A DNA stretch of 64,000 nucleotides from Psychrilyobacter atlanticus DSM 19335 (GCF_000426625.1 NZ_KE384547.1:1477159-1541158); one strand, 5' to 3'. Numbered from the stretch's first letter, positions 2,274-60,402 are shown. Numbers and translations are program-made. The notes: generated by a model from the letters alone, not told the origin.

Positions 2274-5030
2274 TTATAAATTAAATGTATTTTTTTCTAA
2301 ATATTCTTTTATTTTTTCTATTGGTACAGGTTCGCTAAAGTAATATCCCTGTATTTCATCACATTTATAAGTTTTTAAAAAATCAAACTGTTCTTTTGTT
2401 TCTACTCCTTCTGCTACAACTTTAAAACCTAAATTATGAGCCATTAAAATTATAGTTTTTACCATTACTTTATCTTCTTCATTAGTTGCAATTCCATCTA
2501 TAAAATTTTTATCTATTTTTAACCTATCTATAGGAAATTTTTTAAGATAGCTTAGAGATGAATAACCGATCCCAAAATCATCTATAGCCAATTTTATTTC
2601 TAAATCCTTTAACTTTAACATAGTATCCATACTCTTAGATATATCATCCATCAGTATAGATTCTGTTAATTCTAGTTCTATGTGTTTCAAATCTATCTTT
2701 TCTTTATCTAAAACATCTTCAATCATTTTAGGTAGATCACTGTGTTTTATCTGATACCCAGAGATATTAATAGATATATATATATCAGGATCTATCTCAA
2801 CAACTTTTTTTACTTGAGAGAAAACTTTTTCTAAGACCCACCTTGTCATAGGAACTATAAGTCCACTGTCTTCTGCTATACTTATAAATTCATTCGGTGA
2901 AACAACTCCAAATTCAGGATTTTTCCAACGAATAAGTGCTTCACAGGAAATAATTTTTTTTGTTACTGCATTTATTTGCGGCTGATACTCAAGATAAAAT
3001 TCATCTTCTTTTAACGATTTCCTCATTCTATTTTCAAGATCAAGATTTTTCATAAATTTAGAATTCATATTTTCTGTATAGAACTTATAGTTATTTCTTC
3101 CAGATTCTTTAGCATGATACATAGCTGTATCTGCATTTTTTATGAGTTCATTTAAAGAGTTACCATCTAAAGGATAGAGACTTACACCTATGCTGGTAGT
3201 TATAAAAAGATCTTTTCCTCCAATATTAAATGGAAATTTAAAAACATTTAATATGCTCATTACTAGTTTTTTTAAATTATCGATAGAATCAAAAGATGGT
3301 ATTAAAACCACAAATTCATCTCCACCAAACCTTGCGATGATTTCATCTTCTAATTTTATTTCTTTTAAAGACTTTGATACTTTTTTTAAAAGTTCATCCC
3401 CAGAAGAGTGTCCCAATGTATCATTTATATTTTTAAACCTGTCTAAATCTAAAAACATAAAAGCTATCCTTGTTTGATCTGGGTCAGCATTTATAATTAA
3501 ACTTTCTGCCTTACTATTAAAAAATTCTCTGTTGGGCAGATCTGTTAATGAATCATAATATGCCAGATGTTGAATCTGCTTTTTTATATGTTCTTGATTT
3601 GCAAGATCTGAAAACATAGCAATGTGATAATCTATCTTATTTTTATTATTTCGTATTGTTATTATATTTAACCATTCAGGAGAAATTTTGCCATTTTTTT
3701 TCTTATCCCAAATTTCACCCTGCCAGTTCCCATTATATTTAATCGACTTCCACATTTCCTTGTAAAAATATGGTTTATGATGATTGGATCTTAAAATTTT
3801 AGGATCATACCCAATTAAATCTCTTTTCAAATATCCGCTATTTTTTAAAAATGATTTATTGACAGAAACAATTTTATTGTATCTATCTGTAACTATCACA
3901 CCTTCAGGTGTATTTTCTAAGATTTCAGTAAATAAATTTAATTTTTTTTGAGATTCTTCAGATTTATTTGCTAAATTTCCAATTTTATTGGTATATTTAA
4001 TTTTTTTATAGACATATATACTCCACATTAAAGCTATAGTATTAAAAAAAATAAAAATTATCCAATCCCATTTTATAAATTTATTTACAAAAAATGATTT
4101 TCCTGGGATAAATCTAATTTTCCAATTTCGATTTGGAAAATCTACAAAATTTTCAAAATAGAGATCTGAATATTGATACAGTTCTAACCTTTTAAAATAA
4201 TTCTCAGTTGTATAAATTTCAATATTTTTATTTTCTGTGGCATCATAGATCTGAAACTCTAAATTATTTATTTTTAATAGATCTAAAGAAGAATCTATAA
4301 AATCATCTATTTTAAAAACTCCTGAGATAAAACCCAATACTTCTCCTTTAGAATTAAATCCATTTTTATATACAGGGTTTAAAAGAAGAAATATATCTTT
4401 CTCTCTTTTTCTTTGAATTAACCTAATCTTTGATGTCCCTACTACTTTTCCGATTTTTGAGGAGTTCAAAATTGCTTCTGATCTATTTTTATTAGCAAAC
4501 AAATCCAATCCTAAAATACCCTCATATCCCCTAAACGGTTCAATGTAATATATAGGATAATATTGCATTGATCTTTCTCTTTTTTTGATCTCACCGGAAT
4601 TCCCTATTTCAGTAAATTTAAAGTTCTTATATCCCTGTTTTTGAGCTAACCTCTCATATCTGTTTCTTTCGTCATCGCTGACTAGAGGTACCCATAAAAA
4701 AGCCTGAATTCTTCTATTTTCCTCTAAAAAATAGTTTGTAAATTTTTTAAATTGTTCTCTATCTACATTTTTAGAAGTTATAAATAATTGTTTTACAGTA
4801 TTTAAAGTATCTACATTTTTAGTCAATTCTGAATTAAAAGTCCTCAAATAATTTTCTCTTTCTACTCTAAATTTATGCTGAATAAATTTATTTTCTATAG
4901 TTCTAATTTCATAAAATATTAAATAGGATAATAAAAATCCAACAAAAAAAATAGAGTAAGATGGTATATAACTTTTATTAGTATTTGATCTCATAATAAC
5001 CTCCATAGATTTTACTTGATTTATCATCAT
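2274..5030 (-). CDS. Membrane sensor protein with diguanylate cyclase and phosphodiesterase domains (periplasmic sensor-TM-PAS-GGDEF-EAL)
   Basis: N-terminal TM helix and an extracytoplasmic domain, then a second TM. GGDEF motif RFGGDEF with upstream DxLT. EAL motif EALIRW, followed by the DDFG(T/I)GYSS signature. Confidence 0.75.
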   Translation of the reverse strand: MMINQVKSMEVIMRSNTNKSYIPSYSIFFVGFLLSYLIFYEIRTIENKFIQHKFRVERENYLRTFNSELTKNVDTLNTVKQLFITSKNVDREQFKKFTNYFLEENRRIQAFLWVPLVSDDERNRYERLAQKQGYKNFKFTEIGNSGEIKKRERSMQYYPIYYIEPFRGYEGILGLDLFANKNRSEAILNSSKIGKVVGTSKIRLIQRKREKDIFLLLNPVYKNGFNSKGEVLGFISGVFKIDDFIDSSLDLLKINNLEFQIYDATENKNIEIYTTENYFKRLELYQYSDLYFENFVDFPNRNWKIRFIPGKSFFVNKFIKWDWIIFIFFNTIALMWSIYVYKKIKYTNKIGNLANKSEESQKKLNLFTEILENTPEGVIVTDRYNKIVSVNKSFLKNSGYLKRDLIGYDPKILRSNHHKPYFYKEMWKSIKYNGNWQGEIWDKKKNGKISPEWLNIITIRNNKNKIDYHIAMFSDLANQEHIKKQIQHLAYYDSLTDLPNREFFNSKAESLIINADPDQTRIAFMFLDLDRFKNINDTLGHSSGDELLKKVSKSLKEIKLEDEIIARFGGDEFVVLIPSFDSIDNLKKLVMSILNVFKFPFNIGGKDLFITTSIGVSLYPLDGNSLNELIKNADTAMYHAKESGRNNYKFYTENMNSKFMKNLDLENRMRKSLKEDEFYLEYQPQINAVTKKIISCEALIRWKNPEFGVVSPNEFISIAEDSGLIVPMTRWVLEKVFSQVKKVVEIDPDIYISINISGYQIKHSDLPKMIEDVLDKEKIDLKHIELELTESILMDDISKSMDTMLKLKDLEIKLAIDDFGIGYSSLSYLKKFPIDRLKIDKNFIDGIATNEEDKVMVKTIILMAHNLGFKVVAEGVETKEQFDFLKTYKCDEIQGYYFSEPVPIEKIKEYLEKNTFNL

Positions 5031-8502: not shown

Positions 8503-8513
8503 ATATAACAATG

Positions 8514-8546
8514 AAAGCAGGGTGATTACACCCTGCTTTCAATTTA
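8514..8546 (+). terminator. Intrinsic terminator of the OmpA gene
   Basis: GCAGGGTGattaCACCCTGC hairpin followed by TTTCAATTT. Confidence 0.5.
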
Positions 8547-8620: not shown

Positions 8621-8962
8621 CTAATCTATTTTTTCTCCTTCTGTTTCAAGAATATTTCTTCCCCATTTTTCCATAAGGTCTAATATCTCTCCTAGTCCTT
8701 TTCCTTTAGAAGTTATTTTATATTCTACTCTAGGAGGAACTTCCGGGTAAACAGTCCTTTCTATAAACCCATTTTTTTCTAATTCTTTTAGATGTTCGGA
8801 TAATACTTTTTTACTTATGCCAGGAACTATTTTTTGTATTTCACTAAATCTTAAAATTTCTTTATTAAGGTGCCATACAATAAGCGACCTCCACTTACCG
8901 CCTAATACATCTATTGTAGTTTCTATAGGACATTTATACTCCTTATTGTTCCACCTATACAT
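8621..8962 (-). CDS. HxlR-family winged-helix transcriptional regulator
   Basis: CPIETTIDVLGGKWRSLIVWHL is the classic HxlR N-terminal motif. 113 aa. Divergent to a VOC gene, the typical HxlR/VOC pair. Confidence 0.7.
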   Translation of the reverse strand: MYRWNNKEYKCPIETTIDVLGGKWRSLIVWHLNKEILRFSEIQKIVPGISKKVLSEHLKELEKNGFIERTVYPEVPPRVEYKITSKGKGLGEILDLMEKWGRNILETEGEKID

Positions 8963-9221
8963 AACTTTCCTCCTAATCCTTCATTATTTACTATTATTCT
9001 ATCATGATATAATAACTTTTCCTCTATTTATTCCATTTCATTATTTTTTTCAAAAAAGTTTTTTCCTTCTAAGACAGTCTTTTTCATAAAAGGAACCTTT
9101 AGGTAACCTGACTACTAAAAAGTGCCTTCTTCATAAACTTTTTTATCTATGTTATTCTTACTCTATATTAGAAGAGTAGCAAGGAATTTATTAGTGTTCA
9201 TATATAATTTAGGAGGTAACA

Positions 9222-9734
9222 ATGAGATATCCAAGAGCGTTTTCACATATTGGAATTACAGTGTCAGATTTAGATAAAGCGGTTAAGTTTTATGAAGAGG
9301 TTATGGGTTGGTATATTATTATGAAACCCAGTGAAGTAGTAGAAGAAAAAGAAACGGCAATAGGTCAGATGTGTATAGATGTCTTTGGTGAAGGATGGGG
9401 TACATTTAGAATAGCTCACCTTTCTACTGCAGATGGTATAGGAATTGAGCTGTTCGAATTTCCTAATAACACTAAACCACAGGCTGAGTTTAAACCTTTC
9501 CAAACTGGTGTATTTCACTTTTCGGTAAAAGATCCAGATGTAGAAGGTTTGGCAGCTAAAATAGTAGAAGGTGGGGGAAAACAAAGAATGCCAATAAGAG
9601 AATACTATCCAGAAGATAAGCCATACAGAATGGTCTATATGGAAGATCCTTTTGGAAATATTATAGAAATTTACTCTCATTCATATGAACTTCACTATGG
9701 TGCAGGTGCATATCAACACGAATTAAATAAGTAA
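9222..9734 (+). CDS. VOC/glyoxalase-family protein
   Basis: FSHIGITVSDLDKAVKFY... glyoxalase-like N-terminus. 170 aa. Divergent from the HxlR regulator. Confidence 0.6.
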   Translation: MRYPRAFSHIGITVSDLDKAVKFYEEVMGWYIIMKPSEVVEEKETAIGQMCIDVFGEGWGTFRIAHLSTADGIGIELFEFPNNTKPQAEFKPFQTGVFHFSVKDPDVEGLAAKIVEGGGKQRMPIREYYPEDKPYRMVYMEDPFGNIIEIYSHSYELHYGAGAYQHELNK

Positions 9735-9773
9735 ATCAAAATTAACTTTAACAATAAAAATGTCTATTTAGCC

Positions 9774-9819
9774 GAATATATAAGAACTAAAAAAGCAGGA
9801 TGAAGCCCATCCTGCTTTT
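9774..9819. repeat. attL-like direct repeat containing a terminator hairpin
   Basis: ATAAGAACTAAAAAAGCAGGATGAAGCCCATCCTGCTTTT is identical to 60379..60418. The hairpin GCAGGATG/CATCCTGC lies at 9795..9815. Five more flanking bases match with one mismatch. Confidence 0.7.
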
Positions 9820-10289: not shown

Positions 10290-10329
10290 AATTTCATCTC
10301 CCTCAATTACTTTTCGGACTAATCCATCT

Positions 10330-10380
10330 GCTTATAGATATTAGTCCCTGTAGCTTGTACTAGCGGGAGTAATTTCTATC
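10330..10380 (-). pseudogene. Degenerate duplicate of the 3' end of the SDR gene, including its stop codon
   Basis: The reverse complement reads ...CAAGCTACAGGG...ATATCTATAAGC...GAAAAGTAA. It aligns to SDR codons QATGRDIYK...EK* at 60435..60500 (about 29 of 33 core positions identical). One frameshift and a premature TAG are present. Confidence 0.45.
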
Positions 10381-10534
10381 TTTTCATACAGTTGTATAAT
10401 TATAAATATAGACTTTTATTTTCTATGCATAAAGTAATTATATAACACTAAACACTCCGTGTCCACTAAGGTTAAGTGGTAGATTTTATGTGATAAATTC
10501 GGAGCACACGTTAGAGCCTCTGTCTTTAAAAGTA

Positions 10535-10572
10535 AATAAAAAATCAGGCAAGAATGGCCTGATTTTTTATTA
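10535..10572. terminator. Bidirectional intrinsic terminator after the HD-GYP gene
   Basis: ATCAGGCaagaatgGCCTGAT hairpin flanked by an A6 run and a T6 run. Confidence 0.5.
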
Positions 10573-10726
10573 TATTTTTTTATCTCTACCCTAGTAGTAC
10601 ACTAATGGTTTTCCACCATGTGATCTACTAGAATTGAAATGAATTTCTAAATCTTTTTTACTTCAACCTATACTATACGATCTCTTTTCTTCTTGTACGT
10701 ATAATTATCTAATTATAAAAATTTAA

Positions 10727-12262
10727 TTACTCGTTTGAATCAGGGAATTCTAAATGAATTTCTTGGAATTTATGATTTAACTTTTTAAAAGCTTCTAATA
10801 CATGAGGGTCAAAATGTTCTGGCATAGTTCTACCATTTCCCTCTAAAATAATTTTCATAGTCTTCTCATGAGTAAATGCTTCTTTGTAATGCCTTTTACT
10901 CATCAAAGCATCATATACATCTGCCATTGCCATTAATCTTGCAGAAATTGGAATTTCCTCTCCGACTAAACCTCTAGGATATCCTAATCCATCCCATTTT
11001 TCATGGTGAGAATAAGCTATTTCTTTCGCAAAGCGTAAAAAAGAGTTAGTTCCCATAATTTTTTCTGCTTTTAATATAGCATCTCTTCCATAAGTTGTAT
11101 GTTTTTTCATCTCTTCAAATTCTTCTTTTGTTAATTTTCCTGGTTTCATTAAGATGTTGTCTGGGATTCCAACCTTACCAATGTCATGTAGCTGGGCTGA
11201 ATCGACAATTAATTCGATTGTTGCTTTATTTAGATGATTTGAAAACTTGGGATGATCTTTAAGATGCTCTGCCAAAACTCTTACATAGCTTTTTGTACGA
11301 TAAATATGCATACCAGTCTCATTGTCTCTGGTCTCAGCTAAAACAGCGAGACTTTTGATGGTAACTTCTTGAGTTAATTTTACTTCTTTTGTACGTTCAT
11401 CAACTTTTTGTTCTAAAATTTCATTTTGTTCTTCTAATTTATATTTAACCTCTTTTAGCTCCATATCTCTTATATTAATTTTTTTAATCATAGAGTTAAA
11501 ATTTTGAATTAAGTAACCAAATTCTTCATTGAGGTTATGAATAATTTCATGTTTATAATCACCATTAGAGACTTCATTTACTGCATTAGATAATTTAGTT
11601 ATCGGTAAAAATATTATATATACCAATAAAATTAATATCCCTAGAAGTAACAAAGTTCCGCTTATAATATATTTTTTAAGGAATAAATCATGATTTTTCA
11701 AAAGGACTCCCTCAAAAGAACTAGTATTTGCTTCTACAAAAACAACACCTATTATATCATTTTTATTTATTTGGCTGTAGGCGATTCCTTTAATGGGAGC
11801 TGCAGCTTCAAATTTCTTTTTTTTAAAATCTGAATGAAAATATTGTAATCTATTTTCTTTAATAACCTTTTTTACATGTTCATTTTTGAGTATTTTACCG
11901 ATTTCAGCTTTGTTGTTGGAAGAAAGAATCGTATCATGCAGGTCATAAACACGTATTATTTTTATAAAGGAATATGCTCCAATTTTTTCAACCATTCTCT
12001 GTACTGACTTGAGGTCCCCTTTATCTAAAAGGATTGAAATCCCAAAATCTGAACTAAATAATGTAGAGGAAATCTGATCTTTAACTTGTTTCTCAAAATA
12101 ATTACGAAAAAGGTTATCGGTCAAAGAAAAAGTAAAAATAATATTTACTGTTACTGCTACTATTATTCCAGCAGCAATTTTAAAATATAATTTTATAAAG
12201 GATTTATTCCATTGCCTAATCATCTTTATCGCCTGCCTCTTGAGCGACAGGGTCTGCATCAA
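10727..12262 (-). CDS. Membrane sensor HD-GYP phosphodiesterase (TM-HAMP-coiled coil-HD-GYP)
   Basis: HD motif HDIGKVGIP. HD-GYP signature HHEKWDGLGYP. Two TM segments flank a periplasmic domain and a HAMP-like linker. Overlaps the upstream SBP gene. Confidence 0.7.
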   Translation of the reverse strand: MMQTLSLKRQAIKMIRQWNKSFIKLYFKIAAGIIVAVTVNIIFTFSLTDNLFRNYFEKQVKDQISSTLFSSDFGISILLDKGDLKSVQRMVEKIGAYSFIKIIRVYDLHDTILSSNNKAEIGKILKNEHVKKVIKENRLQYFHSDFKKKKFEAAAPIKGIAYSQINKNDIIGVVFVEANTSSFEGVLLKNHDLFLKKYIISGTLLLLGILILLVYIIFLPITKLSNAVNEVSNGDYKHEIIHNLNEEFGYLIQNFNSMIKKINIRDMELKEVKYKLEEQNEILEQKVDERTKEVKLTQEVTIKSLAVLAETRDNETGMHIYRTKSYVRVLAEHLKDHPKFSNHLNKATIELIVDSAQLHDIGKVGIPDNILMKPGKLTKEEFEEMKKHTTYGRDAILKAEKIMGTNSFLRFAKEIAYSHHEKWDGLGYPRGLVGEEIPISARLMAMADVYDALMSKRHYKEAFTHEKTMKIILEGNGRTMPEHFDPHVLEAFKKLNHKFQEIHLEFPDSNE

Positions 12263-13211
12263 AGAGGTTATTTATCTCAACATCCTTTGATATTAAATTA
12301 TTTTCTACAAGAAACATTTCAATATTTTTTAATTCATCCTTGAAGTCTTCTGAAGAAAAAATATTTTTATTTTCTTCCAAAGTAAAAAATTTAAAATCCT
12401 CATAAAAATTTTTAAATTCATCATAGGTCATCCCTTCTTTGGAAGCCATCAATTCATAAGCCTCTTGGGGGTTATTTTTTACAAATTTCTGTGCCCTATA
12501 CCAGGCTCGGATAATATTGGCATAGTCTTTTTTTCGTTTTTCCAAACTCTCGTTCCTAGCTACTAAAGCATCAATATAATTTAAGGTCTCGTCAGTAGCA
12601 GCTATTATTTTACCATGGCCTTTATCAGCTGCATTGCTTAAATAAGGCTCATAAATAAAGCATGCATCCACCTCTTCAGAGATAAATTTCTCCATTCCTT
12701 CCTCTGAACCTACAGATATTATTGTTATATCATTTTCTTTTAATCCCTCTCTTTTTAGAACTTTATATAGTAAAAAATGATCATCGGTTCCTATTTCTAC
12801 TGCCACTTTTTTGCCTTTTAAATCTTTTACACTTTTGATATAGTCTTTAACTACTAACCCATCTGCTCCATTAATTGTATCTGAAGAAAGTATTATTCTT
12901 GCGGATTCTCCTCTAGAATCATAGTATACAGTATTAAAATATGATGAATGCACTAAGTCAACTTTTCCAATATAAAGAGAGTCCATACTATCCGACCATC
13001 TAGAAAATCTGACAATTTCTACAGGTGTATCACCAAAATAACCTTTTTCTTCAGCAATATACCATAATTCGCAAGGAGGCCAACTGTCTATACCTATTTT
13101 AATGGGCTCTTTATAGGATTCACATGCTGTAAACAAAATTAAGATCACTGTTAAACATAAATTAATAATTCTATTTTTTTTAACTCTCATACTTTCCTCC
13201 TTTGTAATCAA
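12216..13211 (-). CDS. Periplasmic substrate-binding lipoprotein (NMT1/SsuA/TauA-like ABC-type SBP fold), translationally coupled to HD-GYP
   Basis: Signal peptide with lipobox (LFTAC). Type 2 periplasmic-binding-protein-like sequence. The likely true start is the internal Met (MRVKK...). 3' end overlaps 10727..12262 by up to 47 nt. Confidence 0.5.
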   Translation of the reverse strand: MITKEESMRVKKNRIINLCLTVILILFTACESYKEPIKIGIDSWPPCELWYIAEEKGYFGDTPVEIVRFSRWSDSMDSLYIGKVDLVHSSYFNTVYYDSRGESARIILSSDTINGADGLVVKDYIKSVKDLKGKKVAVEIGTDDHFLLYKVLKREGLKENDITIISVGSEEGMEKFISEEVDACFIYEPYLSNAADKGHGKIIAATDETLNYIDALVARNESLEKRKKDYANIIRAWYRAQKFVKNNPQEAYELMASKEGMTYDEFKNFYEDFKFFTLEENKNIFSSEDFKDELKNIEMFLVENNLISKDVEINNLFDADPVAQEAGDKDD

Positions 13212-13292
13212 ATAATGATCTAAGATAAAATAATAAATAATTATTATGGAACTTTCAAATCATTTTATATGACTAAAAAACTATCCAATTTA

Positions 13293-14201
13293 TTATAGTC
13301 TATTCATTAGAGTTATTTGGTTTTTACCATTTTTTTTAGATTCATACATAATTTTATCAGCTCTATCTATCAATTTTTTATGATTTTCAAATTTTCTATA
13401 TGTAGTGATTCCAATGCTCAAGCTTAATTTTATTTCACTTTCTTTTACTGATGACATAGAAGCATTTTGTTTAAGCCTTTCAGTTATTTTTAGCGCTGTC
13501 TTTACTTTTGTATTAGGGTAAATAATTAAAAATTCATCTCCACCATATCTGAAAGCATAGTCAGACTCCCTTATAGAATTATTTATTTGTTCACCCAAGT
13601 TTTTTAATGTCATATCTCCTTTTATATGACCATAAGTATCATTAATAGTTTTAAAATTATCTATATCAATAAACGCCACTGATATATCTGAGTATATTTC
13701 ACTCAATTCATTTAGTATATTATCTAGACGTTCTTCTAGATGGTATCGGTTATATAGTCCTGTTAGGGAATCTTTTATACTTTTATCATATATGACTTTA
13801 TTTTCTTCTGACAGGGTGTTCTTAATTTTCTTTTCGTTCATAAAACGCCAAATAATAGCAATTGATATAGTAATCAATCCAGTTGGTATTAAAATATTTT
13901 CTATTCTAGATAAAGGACCTTCTAGGATATAAATCTTATCCATTACATCTTGTAAATTTCCTAAATAAAACAAAATGAATCCACTGGTCATTAAATAATA
14001 GTTATTCTTATTTTTAAAATCAACTTTTCCAAAATATATCCATATTAGAGGTTGAATACATATCAAAATCTCACTTAAAATATCCGACAATTCTGTGTTT
14101 TCTATTTTTTTAAATGACATATCAAAGTAGATTAATATTATAGTTATTATCACTAAAATTAAGTAAGGTATAGTTTTCTTAACCCGTTTAAATTTTTTCA
14201 T
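13293..14201 (-). CDS. Membrane-anchored diguanylate cyclase (GGDEF)
   Basis: Four predicted TM helices. DSLTGLYNR...RYGGDEF active-site motif. Confidence 0.7.
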   Translation of the reverse strand: MKKFKRVKKTIPYLILVIITIILIYFDMSFKKIENTELSDILSEILICIQPLIWIYFGKVDFKNKNNYYLMTSGFILFYLGNLQDVMDKIYILEGPLSRIENILIPTGLITISIAIIWRFMNEKKIKNTLSEENKVIYDKSIKDSLTGLYNRYHLEERLDNILNELSEIYSDISVAFIDIDNFKTINDTYGHIKGDMTLKNLGEQINNSIRESDYAFRYGGDEFLIIYPNTKVKTALKITERLKQNASMSSVKESEIKLSLSIGITTYRKFENHKKLIDRADKIMYESKKNGKNQITLMNRL

Positions 14202-14295
14202 ATTACTTACTCCTTTTATTCTCTAGATTATTAGATTAAATGCAATTTAATACTTAGCTCTTCTAAAAGTTTTCTTGGGTAGTTTTCTAATTTAA

Positions 14296-14480
14296 ATATT
14301 TACTGTTCTTGCACTTTAAACTTTGTTATCAGTATTACCTCTTCAACACTCATTTTAAGTATTTTCACATCACGTTTATACTATAAATTAATAAAAAATT
14401 AATTTTATTTATTATTCTTTTATACCTTTTTCTCTTTTATTTCCTTTTTTATAAAAAAAGGTTTAACCCTCTCTAAAGTT
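14296..14480. repeat. Repeat E1, a decayed copy of the holin-terminator plus zinc-ribbon-gene 5' region (E2 at 17685..17906)
   Basis: About 80-85% identity to E2 over more than 170 bp, including an exact 16-mer TTCTTGCACTTTAAAC. Encodes a 17-codon pseudo-ORF MSVEEVILITKFKVQEQ*, homologous to the start of 17585..17732 (MEKKEVICLKCKKK...). The terminator stem lacks 5 nt relative to E2. Confidence 0.55.
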
Positions 14481-14819
14481 ACTTTCTTATTGAATTAGTT
14501 TCCTAAAAAATAACTTTGTTCTATGATTCCATGGATTTACTTTTAACTCTATCCTTTTCCTTTGATTTAAAATCTTTCAAACCCACCGATACCTTATATT
14601 TATCTAGCTCATTATAAAGCTTATCATTAGAGTTCAATTAATCACGGACAAAATTCTAAGAAAATCGAAAACAAATCAATAAATAATACTAAATAAAAGG
14701 ACAGTAAATTTATACTGTCCTTCAAAGGTTTATTTTATTGATGTCAATTATGAAAGTTACGAAAAAATTATTTTGTAACTTTCTTGTAATATGTTGAATG
14801 AACTTAAAAAATATTCCGT

Positions 14820-15998
14820 TTATAAAACTTCCCATTGGAAATTTTCATTCTCAAAAAGTTCCACGCAAAAATCTACTATTTCAGGATCGTAATATTTCCC
14901 TCTGCCTAGTTTTATCTCATCCAAAGCTGCTTTTATTCCTAAGGCAGGCCTATAAGGTCTATGGGAACTAATTGCTTCTACCACATCTGAGACTGCGATT
15001 ATCTTTGCCTCTATAATAATTTCTTCTTTCATCAACCCGTTGGGGTAACCAGAACCGTCTAATCTCTCGTGATGTTGGATTATCATCTTTTTTATATCCC
15101 ATGGAAAGTCGATACCACTTATTATCTCTTGCCCTATTTCTGAGTGAAGTTTGATCAAATCAAATTCAGGTTTAGTGATCTCCCCAGGCCTATTTAGTAT
15201 CTCTCCAGGCACATAGATCTTCCCTATATCATGGATCAAAGCCCCAAGACGTAGCCCCTCTATACGCTCCTCACTCAACCCAAGTTTCTTAGCAATAGCA
15301 ACTGCTAGCTTTGTCACTCTTTTCTGATGCCCTGCAGTATAAGGATCTCTTTTTTCTATGGCAAGTACAAAAGCATCTATTGTTTTCAACAGAATTTCAT
15401 AGTGAGCTTTCTGAGCTTGTTCCCTTTCTTTTTTAAGTCTTAAGACATAAATTCCTTGGGCAATATTTTTAGTGAGCCTATGAAAAAGCTCCACCTCCTC
15501 ATTTTTGAAGGCGTCTTTACTATTTGAATATACATTTAATGCTCCTATTATATCCCCTTCGGATTCAATAGGTAATGCAATACTTGACCTATAGCCGAAT
15601 TCCTTAGCTTTTTCTCTCCAAGGCAAATAATCCGTACCTTTCATGATATCTTTCATCAAATATTCCCTACATTCACGGATGGCCCTTCCTGTTGGGCCCT
15701 GACCGTAGACATTATCGCCCCAACTTATATTTATGGAGGATAAATACCCTTTTTTAAAACCCGCTTCTGCAACTGGTATGACCTTTTTCTCGGAATCGTT
15801 GCCAATAGAACCTATCCAGGCTAACTTATATGGACCTTCGTCAACTAGAATTTTGCAAATTTTTGTATATATCTCCATCTCATCTTTTGCAGCTACAATT
15901 ATATCTTGACACTTTATAACGGTAGAATATGCATTTCTCATTCTTTGAAAAGATATCTCTAAATTTTCAACCTTAAAATCACTAGACTGATTCTTCAT
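14820..15998 (-). CDS. Cytoplasmic GAF-domain HD-GYP phosphodiesterase
   Basis: N-terminal GAF-like region. HD motif LIHDIGKIYVP. HD-GYP signature HHERLDGSGYP. Confidence 0.7.
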   Translation of the reverse strand: MKNQSSDFKVENLEISFQRMRNAYSTVIKCQDIIVAAKDEMEIYTKICKILVDEGPYKLAWIGSIGNDSEKKVIPVAEAGFKKGYLSSINISWGDNVYGQGPTGRAIRECREYLMKDIMKGTDYLPWREKAKEFGYRSSIALPIESEGDIIGALNVYSNSKDAFKNEEVELFHRLTKNIAQGIYVLRLKKEREQAQKAHYEILLKTIDAFVLAIEKRDPYTAGHQKRVTKLAVAIAKKLGLSEERIEGLRLGALIHDIGKIYVPGEILNRPGEITKPEFDLIKLHSEIGQEIISGIDFPWDIKKMIIQHHERLDGSGYPNGLMKEEIIIEAKIIAVSDVVEAISSHRPYRPALGIKAALDEIKLGRGKYYDPEIVDFCVELFENENFQWEVL

Positions 15999-16348
15999 AT
16001 AGCACCTCTTCTTTTTACTTTATTCAATTTTAACTTTAATTTTTAGGTAAGTCAATTTTTTAAATAAAATATGAAAAGGGAGTAAATCAACAAATAATTT
16101 ATTGTACATTTATTTAGTATTATTTCGATTTTTATTTGTAACTATATTATTTTACTGAGCTATAGCTTGTCCGAGATAATTAAAACACTTCAATTTTTTT
16201 CAACATCAGTAATTTCAACAAAATATATGCTATATAACCGTTATTATATTTATTTCGATTACTTCATGTAATATTTAATTATTTATTTCATTAAAATATA
16301 TATGAAATAATTTTAAAATAAAAAAGACTCTCAAAAAGAGCCTTGATT

Positions 16349-16780
16349 TTATTTAATTAACGTTCCATCTTTTGATATTTTATTAGTTTTTGTATCATCT
16401 GCCATAGTAATTGAATTTTTACGCCACCACGTTTCTTGTTTTTGTAGACCTCTTTGATATGTCCCAATCATATATTTGTAGTAATCTGTAGCCCCTTCTA
16501 AATACATCCCAACATCATAGTTTGTAATAGTACTATTTTGAGGTGTCATGTTTTCATTATTAAAAAAATGAACTAATGTATTTCCTCTTTCTGTATACAT
16601 TTTTTTTCTAGCATATTCAATCATTTCTTTTGTACTTTTAGAATTAGTATAGACTGTGAAACTCCTACTAACACTAGGAAGCCCTTGTTTTGTTTTAAAA
16701 TATCCAACATCTTTAAAAATAGACTTACTAAAACTAACACAACTTACTACCAACATCAATATAACTATTATTTTTTTCAT
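16349..16780 (-). CDS. Hypothetical lipoprotein
   Basis: Signal peptide with lipobox (VVSC). No domain recognised. Confidence 0.4.
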   Translation of the reverse strand: MKKIIVILMLVVSCVSFSKSIFKDVGYFKTKQGLPSVSRSFTVYTNSKSTKEMIEYARKKMYTERGNTLVHFFNNENMTPQNSTITNYDVGMYLEGATDYYKYMIGTYQRGLQKQETWWRKNSITMADDTKTNKISKDGTLIK

Positions 16781-17023
16781 TTTTTCCTCCTTTAAATTGT
16801 ATTATTTACTTAATCTTAAGTAAATAATACATCAAAATTCAGATTTTTTATATTTATTTTTAATTAATATTATATTTAAATTTCTAAGAAGTCAATTTTA
16901 TTAAATTTAATAAAAAGCATATTAGTTTTATCGCTCGTTAAAAGTATCATATTAAGTGATCATACTATTTTATGTGTTCTTTTACGTATTTTGACACAGT
17001 TTATAGAATAGTTAAAAATGACA

Positions 17024-17227
17024 TTATTTTCTCTTTATTTCTATACTGTATGAAACTCTAACTTTACCATTTAGATGAAAATTTTTAATGTATTCTAATG
17101 CTGAGATGGTTCCAACTTTTTTATTGTCTAAGTAATAAGTTATTTTATAATTATCTAAAAAAGAATAATTACCAGTTAAATATTGTGTTATCAAATCTAA
17201 AAATAATTGTGATTTTTTTTCATCCAT
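17024..17227 (-). CDS. Hypothetical small protein
   Basis: 67-aa ORF in an AT-rich moron-like region. No domain. Confidence 0.2.
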   Translation of the reverse strand: MDEKKSQLFLDLITQYLTGNYSFLDNYKITYYLDNKKVGTISALEYIKNFHLNGKVRVSYSIEIKRK

Positions 17228-17344
17228 TCCATCTTCCTCTCTTATTAATTGTCTTTTACTATTTATACTACTATGTTCTAATTATTTCAATATAAATTTA
17301 AAAAGAATAAAAAAAGGAATATTTAAAATATCCCTTTTATTTTT

Positions 17345-17578
17345 CTATATATTTTCCTCATTACAAATTTTACATGGAGTATACCCTTCTTTAATAGCTA
17401 CTTTTAAAGCTATAGGTTCTAAGTTTTCAGAATATGGACATTTCTCTTGATGATATTTTTTAGTTTTCTTATTTATAAAAACAAAATTTATTAATTCTTT
17501 TTCTTCCCTTTTTATAATCAAAAAAATGATTCCAATTAAAATTATAACTAAGATTATTTTTACCATATTCCCCTCCAA
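17345..17578 (-). CDS. Small bitopic membrane protein with a C-terminal Cys pair motif
   Basis: N-terminal TM helix (IILVIILIGIIFLII). C-terminal CPYSEN...CKIC. Confidence 0.3.
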   Translation of the reverse strand: MEGNMVKIILVIILIGIIFLIIKREEKELINFVFINKKTKKYHQEKCPYSENLEPIALKVAIKEGYTPCKICNEENI

Positions 17579-17584: not shown

Positions 17585-17732
17585 TTTAAGTAGTCCCACT
17601 TACGCCTCTTCCAAATTTCTGAATACTTTTTTTACACTTACTACATATCCTTCTATACGGGATTCCCTTTGAATCAATTTCAGTAATAAATTTTTTCTTG
17701 CACTTTAAACAAATAACTTCTTTTTTTTCCAT
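17585..17732 (-). CDS. Small zinc-ribbon protein (49 aa, CxxC...CxxC)
   Basis: ATG at 17732..17730 with RBS AGGTGA. The product is MEKKEVICLKCKKKFITEIDSKGIPYRRICSKCKKS.... Below the ORF-track length cut-off. Confidence 0.3.
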
Positions 17733-17906
17733 TAGTATCACCTCTTCGACATTTATGTTATTTTAAGTATTAATGTATCACATTTTTGCTATAAAATTTA
17801 AAAATTAATTTAAATTTAAGATCTATTTGTTATTTTTTTATACTTTCTTTCTTTTTATTTCCTTTTTTTATAAAAAAAGAAGAGGTTTAATCCTCTCCTA
17901 AAAATC
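17685..17906. repeat. Repeat E2: holin terminator plus promoter/RBS plus start of the zinc-ribbon gene. Intact copy of E1.
   Basis: Minus-strand terminator AGAGGattaaaCCTCT followed by a T-run immediately after the holin stop. Homologous to 14296..14480. Confidence 0.5.
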
Positions 17907-18368
17907 TCACTTTTTATTAATTTCGGAACTCCCGAAATAGAAACCTATTATTAGCATGGTGATGTTAGTAATAGACCCAACTACCATGCTATTCATCTGT
18001 TTGTCACTACCTACTTCTCCTTTTAGGCTTATCCAGTATAAATAAATACAAAATGATACCCATACAAGTGCTATCAAGGCACTGATGTTCTTTTGAAGCC
18101 AAGATGAGTTATTAGAATTATTTATTTTAAAATTCATATCTCTGGCATTTTTCTTGTCATCTAAGATAAATTTTATATATTCATTTTCCTTTTCTTTTAA
18201 TTTTAAAACCAGCTGAGGATCTCCCTGTAGGGCTTCTAGGATCCCATTTGCTGTGTTAGAGCCTGTAAGTCCTGTAAGAGTTGTTAATGCTCCTACAGGG
18301 TTTCCAATGACTGCCTGGGCTAGTGCCGGAAGTCCTTTATCTTTGAAAAAATTTATAATTTTATTCAT
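17907..18368 (-). CDS. Putative holin
   Basis: 153 aa. C-terminal hydrophobic segments (ISALIALVWVSFCIYLYWI and MLIIGFYF). Sits immediately downstream of the endolysin. Confidence 0.45.
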   Translation of the reverse strand: MNKIINFFKDKGLPALAQAVIGNPVGALTTLTGLTGSNTANGILEALQGDPQLVLKLKEKENEYIKFILDDKKNARDMNFKINNSNNSSWLQKNISALIALVWVSFCIYLYWISLKGEVGSDKQMNSMVVGSITNITMLIIGFYFGSSEINKK

Positions 18369-18376
18369 GTTACCTC

Positions 18377-18751
18377 CTAATCCAACTGGAAATGTGGATA
18401 GTCTTTAAAAGTCTTCCAATCCCCGCCATAACTATTTTTTATACCCAGATAATCAGCACAAACTTTCAATTCCTCACCAACCTTTTTAAAACTTTCTATG
18501 TCGTTCCACCCATTAAATGGATACGGAATAAAATCTATAGCTTTCCCTATTTGATGTTTAGATTTTTTATTGACTCCATCCAATTTACTAAATCCATTTT
18601 TAAATGCTTTTTGCTGGTCCTCTAAGCTCCTTAAGCCACACGTAATAGTCAGGTCTACCTTCCCTCTGGCTAATACCATTCCAACTATTAGAGGTAGTCT
18701 AGGATCTATTTCTTGGATATTTTTGATGCTTCTATTCGATATTTTATTCAT
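18377..18751 (-). CDS. Endolysin, M15-family zinc peptidase (L-alanyl-D-glutamate / D-Ala-D-Ala peptidase fold)
   Basis: SxHxxGxAxD motif (SKHQIGKAIDF) and a distal D...H (DYPHFQLD). 124 aa. Confidence 0.65.
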   Translation of the reverse strand: MNKISNRSIKNIQEIDPRLPLIVGMVLARGKVDLTITCGLRSLEDQQKAFKNGFSKLDGVNKKSKHQIGKAIDFIPYPFNGWNDIESFKKVGEELKVCADYLGIKNSYGGDWKTFKDYPHFQLD

Positions 18752-18754
18752 TTT

Positions 18755-19009
18755 TCACCTCCTGTCTTTTAATAGATCAATAGCTATCTTTATATGTTCT
18801 AAAAGGCTTTTATGATCTTCTTGATGATTTTTAATATATGTTTTAAAGTCACTCTTATCTACCTTCTTGTCATCCAGGAATCTTTCCATGGTTTTAATCT
18901 CTATTTTAATTTTCCCTTGTTCCCTCCAGAGATATAAACTAAATAAGATAATGATGACAATCAACCCTTTTAATGGGTCATCTAGAATTAAATTAAATAA
19001 TGGTATCAT
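18755..19009 (-). CDS. Small membrane protein (possible second holin or antiholin)
   Basis: 84 aa with one TM helix (GLIVIIILFSLYLW). Position upstream of the endolysin. Confidence 0.3.
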   Translation of the reverse strand: MIPLFNLILDDPLKGLIVIIILFSLYLWREQGKIKIEIKTMERFLDDKKVDKSDFKTYIKNHQEDHKSLLEHIKIAIDLLKDRR

Positions 19010-41356: not shown

Positions 41357-42673
41357 TTATTCTTTATAATTTTCTTTTACTTCATCCCAAGTATATTCTT
41401 GACCATCTCTGATGAGTGTTATATCTTCTTTGGCTATTGCATACCTCTTTACTTCTACATCTACATACTTTGGATCAAACTCCATTAAATATGCTGTTCT
41501 ATCTATCTGATCACAACTCATAAGAGTGCTTCCACTTCCTCCAAACCAATCCACTACGAGATCTCCCGGCTTAGTATTATTTAAAATTAGCCTGGCTAAT
41601 AGCTTTAATGGTTTCATTGTAGGATGAACATCATTTCGTGTTGGTTTATCTTCTCTAATGATTGTTGAGTGCTGTTCTAGTAGTTTTGTCATTTTCACTA
41701 TATATTCTCTAAGTTCACTCTTGCCCATACTGTTAAGAGTTCCAGGTAGTTCTAGTACTGTGTCTTGTGTGTAGTCTTTAATAAAATAGTGTGCTGCTCC
41801 CTCTTTCCATCCATAGAGTATTGGTTCATGTCTCCAGTTGTAGTCCTGCCTCGATAGATTGAATCCATTCTTAACCCATATGAGGCACTGAGATATCTTT
41901 AGCTTAGCTTCTTTTAATGCTCCTCTAAATGCTTCTGTCTCTATATCTGCATGGAATATATAATATGCTCCTCCTGGTTCCAGATACTTATGCATATTCT
42001 TATAAAACCTTAATAGGAAATCATAGAAATCTTTTGAATTCATATTGTCATTGATGATCTTCTTTCCATCCTCTGACTCATAATTTATGTTATATGGTGG
42101 ATCAGTTATACATAGCTTCCCTTTGCTCCCATCCATCAGTCTCTTAGCATCTTCTTTGGAAGTAGAATCACCACATAAAACTTTATGTCTTCCTAACAGC
42201 CATAGGTCACCTTGCTTAGTGAAAGGTTCTTTGTGTTCTTCTACTTCTGGTGCATCTATCTCTTCTATGTTTTCAGAGCTTTCCAGTTCCTCTTCAATCA
42301 GTTTTTGAACTTCTTCAGTATCAAAACCGGTAAGATATGATTTATCTCCTAATGATTTTAATTCTTCATATAGTTTTTCAAACTCCCACTCACCTAATTC
42401 AGCTGCTCTTGATTCTCCTATTCTGATTATTTGTATATCTTCTTCAGATAGATTTTCTATTCGATAGCAATTAATCTCTTGAATCCCTAATTCTACCAAT
42501 GCTACATACCTAGCCGGCTCTCCTACAACTACATTGTTCTTATCAATGACTAATGGAATATACTGATTGTAAGTTTTAATTAAATTCTTATATAGCTTTA
42601 CCTGGGCATCGGTATATATTCTTGAGGTATAACCTATGCTTATCTCTGATATATTTACAATAATTTGATTCAT
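41357..42673 (-). CDS. ParB-like nuclease domain fused to a DNA methyltransferase (N6-adenine/N4-cytosine type)
   Basis: N-terminal ParB/Srx-like region. Motif IV DPPY (CITDPPYNI). C-terminal motif I FGGSGST. Confidence 0.7.
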   Translation of the reverse strand: MNQIIVNISEISIGYTSRIYTDAQVKLYKNLIKTYNQYIPLVIDKNNVVVGEPARYVALVELGIQEINCYRIENLSEEDIQIIRIGESRAAELGEWEFEKLYEELKSLGDKSYLTGFDTEEVQKLIEEELESSENIEEIDAPEVEEHKEPFTKQGDLWLLGRHKVLCGDSTSKEDAKRLMDGSKGKLCITDPPYNINYESEDGKKIINDNMNSKDFYDFLLRFYKNMHKYLEPGGAYYIFHADIETEAFRGALKEAKLKISQCLIWVKNGFNLSRQDYNWRHEPILYGWKEGAAHYFIKDYTQDTVLELPGTLNSMGKSELREYIVKMTKLLEQHSTIIREDKPTRNDVHPTMKPLKLLARLILNNTKPGDLVVDWFGGSGSTLMSCDQIDRTAYLMEFDPKYVDVEVKRYAIAKEDITLIRDGQEYTWDEVKENYKE

Positions 42674-45239: not shown

Positions 45240-46145
45240 TTATCCTCCTACATTCTCAAAAGAAATCTTTATTAATTCCTTTGCTGTTTCTAAATCCTTT
45301 TCCTCAGTTATATAAAACTGAAAATTTCCAGTTCCAAAATGTCCTATATTAGTTACATCTCTTCCAACGTCTTTCCACTTTTCTAACTCACTACTAGTAA
45401 ACTTTAAGTTTATTATTATTCTTTTCTTTTGGCATTCAAGACTTGTAAAGTTTTTAGCTATCTTATATGCCACATAATTCTTTTGAGGGACTTCTTCTAC
45501 TTCTTCACTTAAGTTAACTGTATAGTCCCTTATGTCATCTATAAATTCTTTCAAATCAGTAGTTCCTAATTTATTGGATATTCGTTCATATGTCCAAACA
45601 GGTTTTTCTGTTTCTTTTTCATCTACACGAACTACTTTTTCTTTGCATTTGTTATTTTCCATGTTAACAAATATCTCCTCAAGATTAAACATCCCGTTTT
45701 CAAAGTTTTTATATTTCCAGAGTTCTATTGATTTATTCATGACTTTTACAGCATGAAGATCATATTTTTTATATCCTGGAGCGATACAAATAACCCTTAT
45801 ATTACTCCAGTCAATATCTATATATCCAAGCTGTTTATTAACAGCCATTTGAAAATCTCCCTTGTGGTCTTCTAACCAAGACAGATAATATAGTGATTGG
45901 TTAAGAAGACTTGAAGATTCTTCTTTTTTATATTCAATGATTACAGGGTTATTATCTTCAGATATAGCTATAGTATCTATCCTTCCAGAGTGAATACTAC
46001 CAGTATAAAACTCTGAAGCTACAAATTTACAATTAAATATTTCTTCTAAATTATTTTCAACTAATTGTTGGAGCTCTCTTTCTAGTGGAAAATTCTTTTG
46101 TTTTACTACATTAAGAACCCCATTTTCTTGATTAAATAATGGCAT
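45240..46145 (-). CDS. Putative PD-(D/E)xK nuclease-fold protein (NucS/DUF91-like N-terminus)
   Basis: The GRIDTIAI...VIIEYKK motif matches the D...(D/E)xK pattern of restriction-endonuclease-like folds. Sits downstream of hsdS. Confidence 0.35.
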   Translation of the reverse strand: MPLFNQENGVLNVVKQKNFPLERELQQLVENNLEEIFNCKFVASEFYTGSIHSGRIDTIAISEDNNPVIIEYKKEESSSLLNQSLYYLSWLEDHKGDFQMAVNKQLGYIDIDWSNIRVICIAPGYKKYDLHAVKVMNKSIELWKYKNFENGMFNLEEIFVNMENNKCKEKVVRVDEKETEKPVWTYERISNKLGTTDLKEFIDDIRDYTVNLSEEVEEVPQKNYVAYKIAKNFTSLECQKKRIIINLKFTSSELEKWKDVGRDVTNIGHFGTGNFQFYITEEKDLETAKELIKISFENVGG

Positions 46146-46158
46146 AGTTATGTCTCCT

Positions 46159-46983
46159 TTATTTTTTTAAATTAAATAAACTCTCTTCGTTTGAAGAAAA
46201 TACCTGTTTCGAGCAATTTTTCCCTACATCGTTAGCATAAGAAATCATTTTAGAATCTGCAGGAAGAATACAATTATTTTTTAAGTCTGGATAATTAGGA
46301 TATAAAGCTAAACAATAATCTTTACTTAAAGGGAAAAAATGTATCTGCGTGTATGAGTCTAGTGAAACACCACTAGAATAAGCACAAAATTTTATTTTAG
46401 AATTTTCTTTTGCCTCAAGAATAACCCATTTTTTTTGTAAAAAGAATCGACTTATTTCATTAAATGGAAAATTTTTTAATGTTTCTAAGTGTGATAATTG
46501 TTTATCTATACTAAATTTTATTTTATTTTCAGGAATATCATTATTAAACATACCTTTTTCTTTTAATATTTGATAAGCCCCTTTAAATGCCCATGAATTA
46601 ATTTCAGCTGCCATTTCCCTAAATTTATCTGTTCTACTTATTTGAAAAGCGAGATAAAATGCCAGATGACCTTTTGTTTTTGAATCAAAAATATTTTGTA
46701 TATTAAGTAATCCATTTGGATAAACTCTGTTATAAAAAGGTACTTCAATATATTTGCTTATATAGTCTTCTAGTTCGTTATTGGGAGCATCCTTATCAAC
46801 CTCATAAAAATAATGTTCTGAACAAATTTTTTCTATTCTTTTTTTTAATATTTTTAAATTATCAACATCTAGTACATAAACTTTAGCTTTTTTTCGATCT
46901 TTATTTTTTGAGTTTATTTGAAATTTTCTTAAATATCCTTGTGGAATGTAATGTTGATTTTTTACTAAGTTTAATTTAGACAT
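46159..46983 (-). CDS. DUF4238-family protein (defence-island associated)
   Basis: N-terminal HYIPQGYLRKF matches the hallmark HY(I/V)PxFYLxxF start of DUF4238 proteins. Confidence 0.5.
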   Translation of the reverse strand: MSKLNLVKNQHYIPQGYLRKFQINSKNKDRKKAKVYVLDVDNLKILKKRIEKICSEHYFYEVDKDAPNNELEDYISKYIEVPFYNRVYPNGLLNIQNIFDSKTKGHLAFYLAFQISRTDKFREMAAEINSWAFKGAYQILKEKGMFNNDIPENKIKFSIDKQLSHLETLKNFPFNEISRFFLQKKWVILEAKENSKIKFCAYSSGVSLDSYTQIHFFPLSKDYCLALYPNYPDLKNNCILPADSKMISYANDVGKNCSKQVFSSNEESLFNLKK

Positions 46984-47016
46984 CCTTAACCTCCTCTAAT
47001 CACTTCAGTATTATTT

Positions 47017-49776: not shown

Positions 49777-49791
49777 TTATTTATCTCCTAT

Positions 49792-50697: not shown

Positions 50698-50721
50698 AAA
50701 TCCTCCTCTGGCAGTAAGTCC

Positions 50722-59838: not shown

Positions 59839-60402
59839 ATGATTTTATATGACAAAATCAAAGCAAAATATAGTAAAGAAGAAATAAAAGAACTCTTAGG
59901 CATTTCTATTGGCGGAAGAATAATTCGAAATGAAATAAATGTGAATCCCAGCTCCATAAGCTCAAAAATAAATTTATTGGAACTCTGCTATACAATGGAA
60001 GATTTTTTTATTGATTATAAGGAAATCACTGATAAATATATAGAAAAAAATATGTATTATAACCTTTTTTTAAGGGGTTTAACTATAAATTATATTAAAA
60101 ATAAATTTGATTTAGAAACCCAAATATATGCATATTTAATCCGGGGTTTTGATTATAATGGTTTCACTAGAAACATGCATCTAGCTTTTGATTCTTTAGG
60201 GATTGTAGTAGATACCTCTCCCTTTACAGTAGATTTATATAAAACTCATGTAGAGCTCTTTGGAAAAAAAGAGGACCTGGAAAACTTTAGGAATAGATAC
60301 GGCATCAAATGGGAGCTCTGGTATGAGCCATACAGAAAGTCCTGGCATCTTGCCTTTAACGGCTGCCTAGCTGAATACATAAGAACTAAAAAAGCAGGAT
60401 GA
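59839..60402 (+). CDS. Hypothetical protein whose 3' end overlaps attR
   Basis: 187-aa ORF. Its last 8 codons and its stop lie within the 40-bp att repeat; the stop sits in the hairpin loop. Confidence 0.35.
   Translation: MILYDKIKAKYSKEEIKELLGISIGGRIIRNEINVNPSSISSKINLLELCYTMEDFFIDYKEITDKYIEKNMYYNLFLRGLTINYIKNKFDLETQIYAYLIRGFDYNGFTRNMHLAFDSLGIVVDTSPFTVDLYKTHVELFGKKEDLENFRNRYGIKWELWYEPYRKSWHLAFNGCLAEYIRTKKAG

Follow-up and report, generated by a model that had tools for sequence, protein, structure and literature searches.

A 64-kb segment of the chromosome of the marine bacterium Psychrilyobacter atlanticus DSM 19335 (NZ_KE384547.1, 1477159 to 1541158; hereafter the window, taken at its full length) carries a myovirus-type prophage of about 50.1 kb, and four genes predicted to encode a cyclic di-GMP (c-di-GMP) turnover system lie between its lysis cassette and its left attachment (att) junction. 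All four open reading frames (ORFs) that had been predicted at 10727-15998 were confirmed, on the minus strand. They encode a GGDEF protein, a lipoprotein substrate-binding protein, a Cache-HAMP-HD-GYP protein and a GAF-HD-GYP protein; the HD_5, GGDEF and NMT1 domains scored above their Pfam cut-offs, and all reading frames and every catalytic motif are intact. We consider that the four genes are probably true prophage cargo, and the likeliest role that we infer for them is lysogenic conversion of host c-di-GMP signaling. The original prediction treated them as a single c-di-GMP module. Judged by their sequences and neighborhoods, they are instead two independent acquisitions, a conserved three-gene operon and a GAF-HD-GYP cassette. 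Phage-derived DNA lies on both sides of each: a lysis-gene remnant and linkers are found between them, and a phage arm lies beyond the last gene. Both units would be host-type genes recently captured from host chromosomes, since close orthologs are present in relatives, some of them in chromosomal settings that are not phage-related.

Two c-di-GMP cassettes in a variable post-lysis slot

The operon has the order GGDEF cyclase, lipoprotein binding protein and Cache-HAMP-HD-GYP protein, and it is kept as a unit in relatives. Its first gene (13293-14201, minus strand) encodes a predicted membrane diguanylate cyclase (Pfam GGDEF, 150.3 bits against a cut-off of 23.8). This protein carries RESDYAFRYGGDEF, in which an RxxD I-site lies five residues upstream of the active site, with GGDEF at residue 220. 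It had been described as a four-transmembrane protein; the GGDEF domain and the membrane location held up, and two strong transmembrane (TM) segments, not four, were confirmed. The second gene (12216-13211, minus strand) encodes a lipoprotein of the NMT1/SsuA type (Pfam NMT1, 70 bits against a cut-off of 20.5) that matches the structures of SsuA, NrtA and TauA. Its N-terminal hydrophobic segment was taken as a signal peptide, and an LFTAC lipobox was read from the sequence. The overlap that had been noted between its 3' end and the start of the HD-GYP gene is real and amounts to 14-47 nucleotides (nt), depending on the start codon used; the same overlap occurs in three of the loci collected for comparison (designated by L numbers), L106, L109 and L113. 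The binding protein is predicted to be translationally coupled to the HD-GYP gene. The third gene (10727-12262, minus strand) encodes a predicted phosphodiesterase with a Cache-like periplasmic domain (below the cut-off, E 1.7e-5) between two TM segments; the Pfam domains HAMP and HD_5 come after these. The motifs HDIGK359, HHE419 and GYP427 are intact.

The juxtaposition of a periplasmic binding protein with a membrane c-di-GMP enzyme that has a periplasmic sensor and HAMP domain resembles NspS-MbaA, a polyamine-sensing pair of Vibrio cholerae in which NspS is PotD-like and MbaA is a GGDEF-EAL protein. The window proteins differ from that pair, combining an NMT1/SsuA-like binding protein with an HD-GYP enzyme. 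At L113 (1-6837), an orthologous pair of binding protein and Cache-HD-GYP protein (63% amino acid identity) adjoins a helix-turn-helix-cupin regulator and a polyamine biosynthesis operon encoding a decarboxylase, an S-adenosylmethionine decarboxylase, a spermidine synthase and an arginase-fold enzyme. By analogy with NspS-MbaA, this neighborhood is a possible hint at the ligand of the binding protein.

The fourth gene (14820-15998, minus strand) encodes a predicted cytoplasmic phosphodiesterase with Pfam GAF and HD_5 domains; the two HD-GYP proteins have HD_5 scores of 96.5 and 123.8 bits against a cut-off of 27.2. Its motifs HDIGK256, HHE309 and GYP317 are intact, and both these motifs and the order of GAF followed by HD-GYP are shared with PmGH, a c-di-GMP enzyme of Persephonella marina (PDB 4MCW), and with V-cGAP3 of V. 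cholerae (PDB 5Z7C), a phosphodiesterase of 3'3'-cGAMP (cyclic GMP-AMP). It aligns with PmGH over both domains (E 9e-36) and with V-cGAP3 almost as well (E 8e-33). As 4MCW and 5Z7C match alike, c-di-GMP and cGAMP specificity of this enzyme are not separable by sequence. The region upstream of the gene (15999-16255, minus strand), a predicted promoter region, was co-inherited with it, as seen in a block of homology to L112 that extends over 14821-16255 (87%).

Both units lie in a cargo region of ~7.5 kb between the lysis cassette and attL that is a mosaic of gene cassettes, each with a predicted promoter and a terminator. The original prediction had placed terminators between the cargo and the late operon, and this was borne out by 12 terminator-like sites between cassettes against 2.9 expected, including those at 17878-17899, 16324-16344, 14696-14723 and 10535-10571. 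Upstream regions, which are putative promoters, were co-inherited with the cargo genes. Two copies of a linker of ~150 nt, each comprising a terminator and a promoter element, were found on the minus strand. Copy A (14382-14496) lies upstream of the GGDEF gene and matches the post-lysis linkers of related prophages as well as L106 (7745-7890); copy B (17723-17922) is a repeat of copy A and directly follows the lysis cassette. A further linker (14633-14773, minus strand), with the terminator at 14696-14723, follows the GAF-HD-GYP gene and is 85% identical to L097 (16599-16736) and 80% identical to L092 (16893-16996). Linkers of the post-lysis type thus cover 14382-14773 and 17723-17922, and in related prophages they flank quite different cargo. 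No match to a riboswitch or other known RNA was found for the linkers in Rfam.

The 3' remnant of a lysis gene (14551-14637, minus strand) is located between the two c-di-GMP cassettes. It comprises 29 codons of the 100-residue last gene of the lysis cassette of related prophages, with 65% identity to the L092 protein (E 2e-6) and 73-81% nt identity to L091-L094 and L097. As read from its sequence, this truncated gene shows at least one swap by recombination with a related phage. Such a recombination event would have brought in the present endolysin, the small ORFs, a lipoprotein gene and the GAF-HD-GYP gene, and before it the GGDEF operon would have directly followed the lysis genes. Cargo exchange appears to be mediated by the conserved ~150-nt linkers. 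This mechanism of cargo swapping in the phage family, which involves the post-lysis linkers and the att arm, could be used for finding further cargo.

Comparison with related prophages supports the assignment of the four genes to a cargo slot, and the location between lysis cassette and left repeat that had been proposed for them was upheld. The structural genes of these prophages are colinear up to the fiber genes and are followed by lysis genes and then by differing cargo: L092, for example, has a MORN lipoprotein together with membrane proteins, and L097 has small ORFs and an AAA ATPase. The slot is hypervariable in at least six related prophages, and relatives with 87-94% identical baseplate genes hold other cargo. 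Two related prophages of 47.8 and 53.4 kb (IMGVR_UViG_2524614854_000002 and _000003; L085, L087, L091 and L092) occur in one isolate genome; they show 92-98% identity to the window prophage in their structural genes, yet these genes are distinct. Co-resident related prophages of this kind would supply partners for cassette swaps.

Prophage boundaries and integration site

The element is a genuine prophage, as had been predicted. Its late region (~17900-40200) is complete and encodes small and large terminase, portal, protease, capsid, sheath, tape measure, baseplate and fiber proteins, a holin and an M15 endolysin. The structural and packaging module (19022-40198, minus strand) is of the myovirus type, with 87-98% amino acid identity to about 10 related prophages in IMG/VR. 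The lysis cassette (17907-19009, minus strand) consists of a holin (18755-19009), the M15 endolysin (18377-18751) and a holin-like membrane protein of 153 residues (17907-18368). The cargo slot had been likened to that of lambda-like phages; the integrase, however, is not lambda-like but a large serine recombinase (58487-59830, plus strand; Pfam Resolvase 90.2 bits, Recombinase 54 bits), ~26% identical to phiFC1-type phage integrases. The recombinase gene ends ~640 nt from attR and is followed by ORF187 (59839-60402, plus strand), which encodes a conserved recombinase partner of 187 residues. A cI-like S24 repressor is encoded at 54083-54790.

From its junctions, and not from excision, we infer that the prophage occupies 10346-60486, ~50.1 kb, a length within the range of its relatives (47.8-53.4 kb). 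The att core was located in an alignment of both junctions with prophage L097 and metagenome contig L108. The candidate core, CCCTGTAGCTTGT, has exactly two copies in the window, identical and in the same orientation (plus strand): candidate attL at 10346-10358 and candidate attR at 60474-60486, the latter inside the 3' end of an SDR (YdfG-like) oxidoreductase gene (60435-61214, minus strand). This gene is the probable integration target, and its last ~13 codons come from the phage arm. A degenerate remnant of an SDR 3' end (10310-10345, minus strand) lies at the left junction and would be the displaced host tail; it encodes QATGTNIYKQMD, compared with QATGRDIYKLTNLDEK at the SDR C terminus, each followed by a stop codon. 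This remnant contains a second match between the two ends, colinear with the 51-nt repeat discussed below and 0.5 kb further in. To the left of the core, homology between the arms (SDR tail and terminators) exceeds 100 nt; to its right the arms differ, being the P' arm at the left junction and the SDR gene body at the right junction. The sequence at 10359-10425 was taken as the phage-side P' arm because prophage L097 and contigs L108 and L109 have it too and it does not resemble the SDR gene body. In L097 it ends the prophage cargo, directly before a host alcohol dehydrogenase gene.

The four genes had been placed inside a pair of att repeats. They do lie within the most probable junctions, but the 51-nt direct repeat, though real, is not the crossover site; the best candidate for that is the 13-nt core, and the repeat is a terminator in a duplicated arm. 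Its left copy, T (9769-9819), is a bidirectional intrinsic terminator after a glyoxalase gene, in the host-side (B) arm; its right copy, T' (60368-60418), lies in the phage-borne (P) arm; the two are identical at 49 of 51 nt. The T family is derived from the 3' end and terminator of the neighboring OmpA-like gene (alignment A2). The hairpin motif of the repeat had no occurrences in shuffled sequence. We rejected the repeat as a genome-wide element of the repetitive extragenic palindrome type, because among 113 loci the hairpin was found only at the two window sites and at the terminator of the orthologous OmpA gene in L108. Taken together, these features suggest that the large serine recombinase would have integrated the prophage in the SDR gene's 3' end, that the phage arm would substitute for the SDR tail and terminator and so restore the tail of the gene, and that the displaced original tail would be decaying at the left junction.

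Strain ZRK30 (Fusobacteria bacterium, CP102405.1) has a related prophage at the same SDR gene, with a recombinase 97.5% identical to that of the window. In that prophage (L114, 10795-11410), an extra insert of 616 nt with a 69-residue gene and a DUF2335 gene separates the T' terminator from the stop codon of the SDR gene, which makes the phage-borne arm a site of insertion in its own right. In the window, a small-ORF remnant and the bidirectional terminator at 10535-10571, which closes the operon, occupy 10440-10579, on the side of the P' arm that faces the cargo; their order relative to the P' arm is swapped in comparison with L097 and L109. Imprecise excision may have captured this segment as a fossil junction. 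To explain the swapped order, a second SDR-tail remnant at 10580-10727 was considered and rejected, since the alignment scores fell within the range of shuffled sequences. An AT-rich inverted match between 16852-16880 and 60078-60106 was likewise set aside as att half-sites because the sequence is of low complexity.

Source of the cargo and competing explanations

Orthologs of both units were found in related bacteria. Full-length orthologs of the Cache-HAMP-HD-GYP protein, with 91% down to 50% identity, extend through Psychrilyobacter and Ilyobacter, and the GAF-HD-GYP protein has orthologs with 96% to 73% identity in related Fusobacteriaceae. Some of these have phage-like surroundings. At L109, the same operon (91% nt identity) is located ~130 nt from the same junction sequence. 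L112, which encodes a GAF-HD-GYP protein with 88-89% amino acid identity, begins with the post-lysis linker known from five prophages, and in both L112 and L108 the GAF-HD-GYP gene is paired with a gene for an ArsB-like transporter. The order in L108 is ArsB-like gene, GAF-HD-GYP gene, further genes, P' arm and core, SDR tail, T, and OmpA-like gene. In sequence, L112 and L108 look like the cargo end of a further related prophage that occupies the same site. L108, with its OmpA-like gene, T, SDR remnant and GAF-HD-GYP gene and no phage genes, was considered as proof that these are genes of the host backbone. This reading was dropped because the right half of the remnant is the P' arm of L097 and the L112 post-lysis linker lies beside the same gene pair. 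GAF-HD-GYP orthologs in L110, L111 and L113 have plain chromosomal settings with phage-like DNA absent; the one in L113 lies within 10 kb of the pair of binding protein and Cache-HD-GYP protein. The codon usage of the cargo is nearer to that of host genes than to that of the structural genes, with composition and codon usage being weakly informative.

Several observations count against assigning the genes to the phage or assigning them a role there. None of the ~10 related IMG/VR prophages and no INPHARED phage carries the four genes, so the suggestion that related prophages be searched for the same cargo yielded none. In L106/L107, the operon and its promoter linker are present at 88% nt identity over 3.7 kb, and no phage structural genes occur within 8-10 kb; L106 contains three short cargo-like modules, and it may be the source or a decayed remnant. 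The hairpin and small-ORF sequence lies outside the junction in L097 (18403-18520) and L109 (3640-3760) and inside it in the window. The dyad symmetry of the reconstructed attP is modest (11/18), and the long left-arm homology and the 51-nt repeat are atypical, as serine recombinases normally need no long identity. Searches for an attP-containing or circular contig found none. In the annotation of the window, a replication module was not recognized between repressor and terminase, and given this the prophage may be defective.

An unlikely explanation, in our judgment, is that the four genes are located outside the mobile phage genome, either as host DNA or as the fossil cargo end of an older, deleted prophage or island, with the active prophage ending between 16255 and 17020. 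It would account for the close orthologs in L110, L111 and L113, for the operon of L106/L107 and for the absence of the four genes from related prophages. Homology to the nearest GAF-HD-GYP relative ends at 16255, the SDR-tail remnant is old (74-78% identical between genomes), and the lysis-gene remnant (14551-14637) could be what is left of an older prophage. Against this explanation, no further core copy or att-like junction exists between 10400 and 60400, so that the only excision partners enclose the cargo. The join near 14640 lies inside a phage gene and not at an att site, which points to recombination within one phage genome and not to tandem elements. The ORFs of 77 and 67 residues at 17024-17578 have post-lysis homologs in L097 and L094 and thus belong to the cargo region as well, and the total of 50.1 kb agrees with the lengths of related prophages. 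No strain with the same genes at this locus and without the prophage was found; the search for an empty site with the left-flank glyoxalase found none, and only the HxlR-glyoxalase pair was syntenic. The dead catalytic motifs that the original prediction had named as a contrary outcome were not found either.

The genes could also belong to the phage as neutral passengers, picked up by imprecise excision or illegitimate recombination beside attL, an account that we hold to be possible without favoring it. Its appeal is positional: only ~370 nt separate the operon from the att core, a location that is classic for capture of the specialized-transduction type, and a host-side junction fragment (the small-ORF remnant and hairpin) lies inside the P' side. 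Host-like composition and absence of the genes from all other related prophages sampled fit the same origin, but neutral carriage sits poorly with four intact reading frames in which every catalytic and regulatory motif is preserved, and with cassettes that keep their own terminators and predicted promoter regions. The operon recurs beside the same junction in L109 (91%), and a GAF-HD-GYP ortholog occupies the equivalent slot in L108 and L112, which suggests retention across lineages.

A different role, counter-defense, would have one or both HD-GYP enzymes hydrolyze cyclic-oligonucleotide immune signals, such as the 3'3'-cGAMP of cyclic oligonucleotide-based antiphage signaling systems (CBASS). 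The known anti-CBASS and anti-Pycsar enzymes Acb1 and Apyc1 have other folds (2H-phosphoesterase and metallo-beta-lactamase) and sensor domains are absent from them; the cargo proteins, unlike this type, have the HD-superfamily fold with Cache/HAMP or GAF sensors. The near-equal match of the GAF-HD-GYP protein to V-cGAP3 is compatible with counter-defense, a Microcystis phage HD-GYP gene has been annotated as a cGAMP phosphodiesterase, and HD-GYPs of jumbo phages were predicted to be counter-nucleotide defenses (PMC7824862). We nevertheless regard a dedicated counter-defense function as very improbable because the enzymes are sensor-gated, have chromosomal orthologs and, in one case, share an operon with a cyclase. 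More specifically, orthologs with 73-91% identity occur in related bacteria, some in ordinary chromosomal settings, and one of the enzymes is membrane-anchored and coupled to a periplasmic binding protein. The genes lie behind terminators after the late genes, a placement for expression in the lysogen and not in early infection, and the window contains no CBASS genes.

Cargo that contributes to lysogenic conversion is the reading that we develop here. With upstream regions and terminators of their own and a location behind the late genes, the cassettes are probably placed for expression in the lysogen. There, each would have a promoter that drives its transcription without dependence on the late operon. 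A periplasmic ligand would be signaled by the binding protein to the Cache-HAMP-HD-GYP enzyme and a cytoplasmic one by the GAF domain, and the cyclase would contribute product-inhibited synthesis of c-di-GMP. The host already has a c-di-GMP network, to which the cassettes together would add turnover gated by signals, and the outcome would be lysogenic conversion of surface, biofilm or motility behavior. A c-di-GMP gene of the host itself, encoding a GGDEF-EAL protein, is present in the flank at 2274-5030. A broader proposal, which we put forward as a doubtful conjecture, is that temperate phages of marine Fusobacteriaceae trade whole signal-gated c-di-GMP circuits through att-proximal cassettes and, when prompted by a ligand from the environment, reprogram the surface/planktonic switch of the lysogen, its receptor exposure or its induction, or that the HD-GYP enzymes double as degraders of immune signals.

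Known systems and neighboring genes

Phage morons, such as bor and lom in the b region of lambda and old and tin of P2, offer the closest architectural parallel. Like these, the window cassettes are self-contained units of (predicted) promoter, gene and terminator between late genes and att site, variable among similar phages and placed for expression from the prophage. The window phage is, unlike the carriers of those morons, a serine-recombinase myovirus of a fusobacterium and not lambdoid, and its cargo consists of 7.5 kb with sensor-coupled second-messenger enzymes in place of surface or exclusion proteins. The diguanylate cyclases DgcK and DgcL are encoded on SXT/R391 integrative and conjugative elements in Vibrio. 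There too a mobile element imports c-di-GMP enzymes, which in the window are predicted, into a host with an existing network; those elements are conjugative and bring cyclases only, whereas the window phage has synthesis, degradation and binding-protein input.

Viral sequences with related genes have been reported. Sargassum-associated viral contigs carry the cyclase gene mucR and the phosphodiesterase gene yhjH, read as biofilm modulation (PMC11295528). As in the window, genes for c-di-GMP synthesis or breakdown were assigned to viral or prophage sequence; in those fragmentary contigs the genes were single and the virus-host boundary was left open, while junctions, architecture and gene sources were traced here. 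The HD-GYP genes of jumbo phages mean that the idea of counter-defense is not new (PMC7824862). They share with the window prophage a phage-encoded HD-GYP catalytic domain, but belong to lytic phages and stand alone, in contrast to sensor-gated enzymes of a temperate phage that have chromosomal orthologs and, in one case, a place in a cyclase operon. As proteins, the products of the four genes are unremarkable representatives of the HD-GYP, GGDEF and NMT1 families. What is new is the carrier, a fusobacterial temperate phage, together with the completeness of the set and the traceable exchange of cassettes. Should the cargo prove to be packaged and expressed, the prophage would be a clearly resolved example of a temperate phage that carries a full, sensor-gated set for making and breaking c-di-GMP from one bacterium to another, a type of cargo that is uncommon in phages and documented so far mainly on conjugative elements and fragmentary virome contigs. 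P. atlanticus is in culture and would allow a tractable test of prophage tuning of biofilm or motility signaling.

Other genes of the cargo region are small and lie on the minus strand. A lipoprotein of 143 residues (16349-16780) has its own terminator (16324-16344) and no family or phage match; a near-perfect palindrome of 34 nt (16798-16831) immediately upstream of its gene could be an operator. An ORF of 67 residues (17024-17227) has a homolog after the lysis genes of prophage L094, and an ORF of 77 residues with a membrane segment and Cys motif (17345-17578) has one after those of L097. A zinc-ribbon-like ORF of 48 residues (17586-17732) was read from the sequence, with a homologous region in L097 and L106. 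The ORFs of 48 and 77 residues form a small module that recurs after the L097 lysis genes and, without phage structural genes, in L106. Searches of IMG/VR and INPHARED found no close relatives of the recombinase, ORF187, the 143-residue lipoprotein or the cargo.

In the early region of the prophage, where a replication module would be expected, a defense island occupies 45240-53523. It contains a complete type I restriction-modification system, with hsdR (50722-53523), a DUF5677 gene (49792-50697), hsdM (48235-49776) and hsdS (47017-48234), and a gene for a candidate defense protein, PDC-S18 (45240-46145). Just upstream of the terminase genes, 41357-42673 encodes a ParB-like nuclease domain fused to an N6 DNA methyltransferase (phrog_498).

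Two features were observed in the chromosomal flanks. To the left of the prophage, an HxlR regulator and a glyoxalase/VOC protein are encoded at 8621-9734 between two terminators of the same family (8513-8540 and 9769-9819). Proteins with 70-89% identity to the glyoxalase occur in many unrelated phyla, and synteny in relatives is confined to the HxlR-glyoxalase pair, which looks like a small cassette that moves horizontally. The right flank (60435-63830) contains nucleotide-messenger genes, encoding a protein like small alarmone synthetases of the RelA_SpoT type (61530-62597), an acylphosphatase and a Ppx/GppA phosphatase (62913-63830), and this arrangement is conserved in ZRK30.

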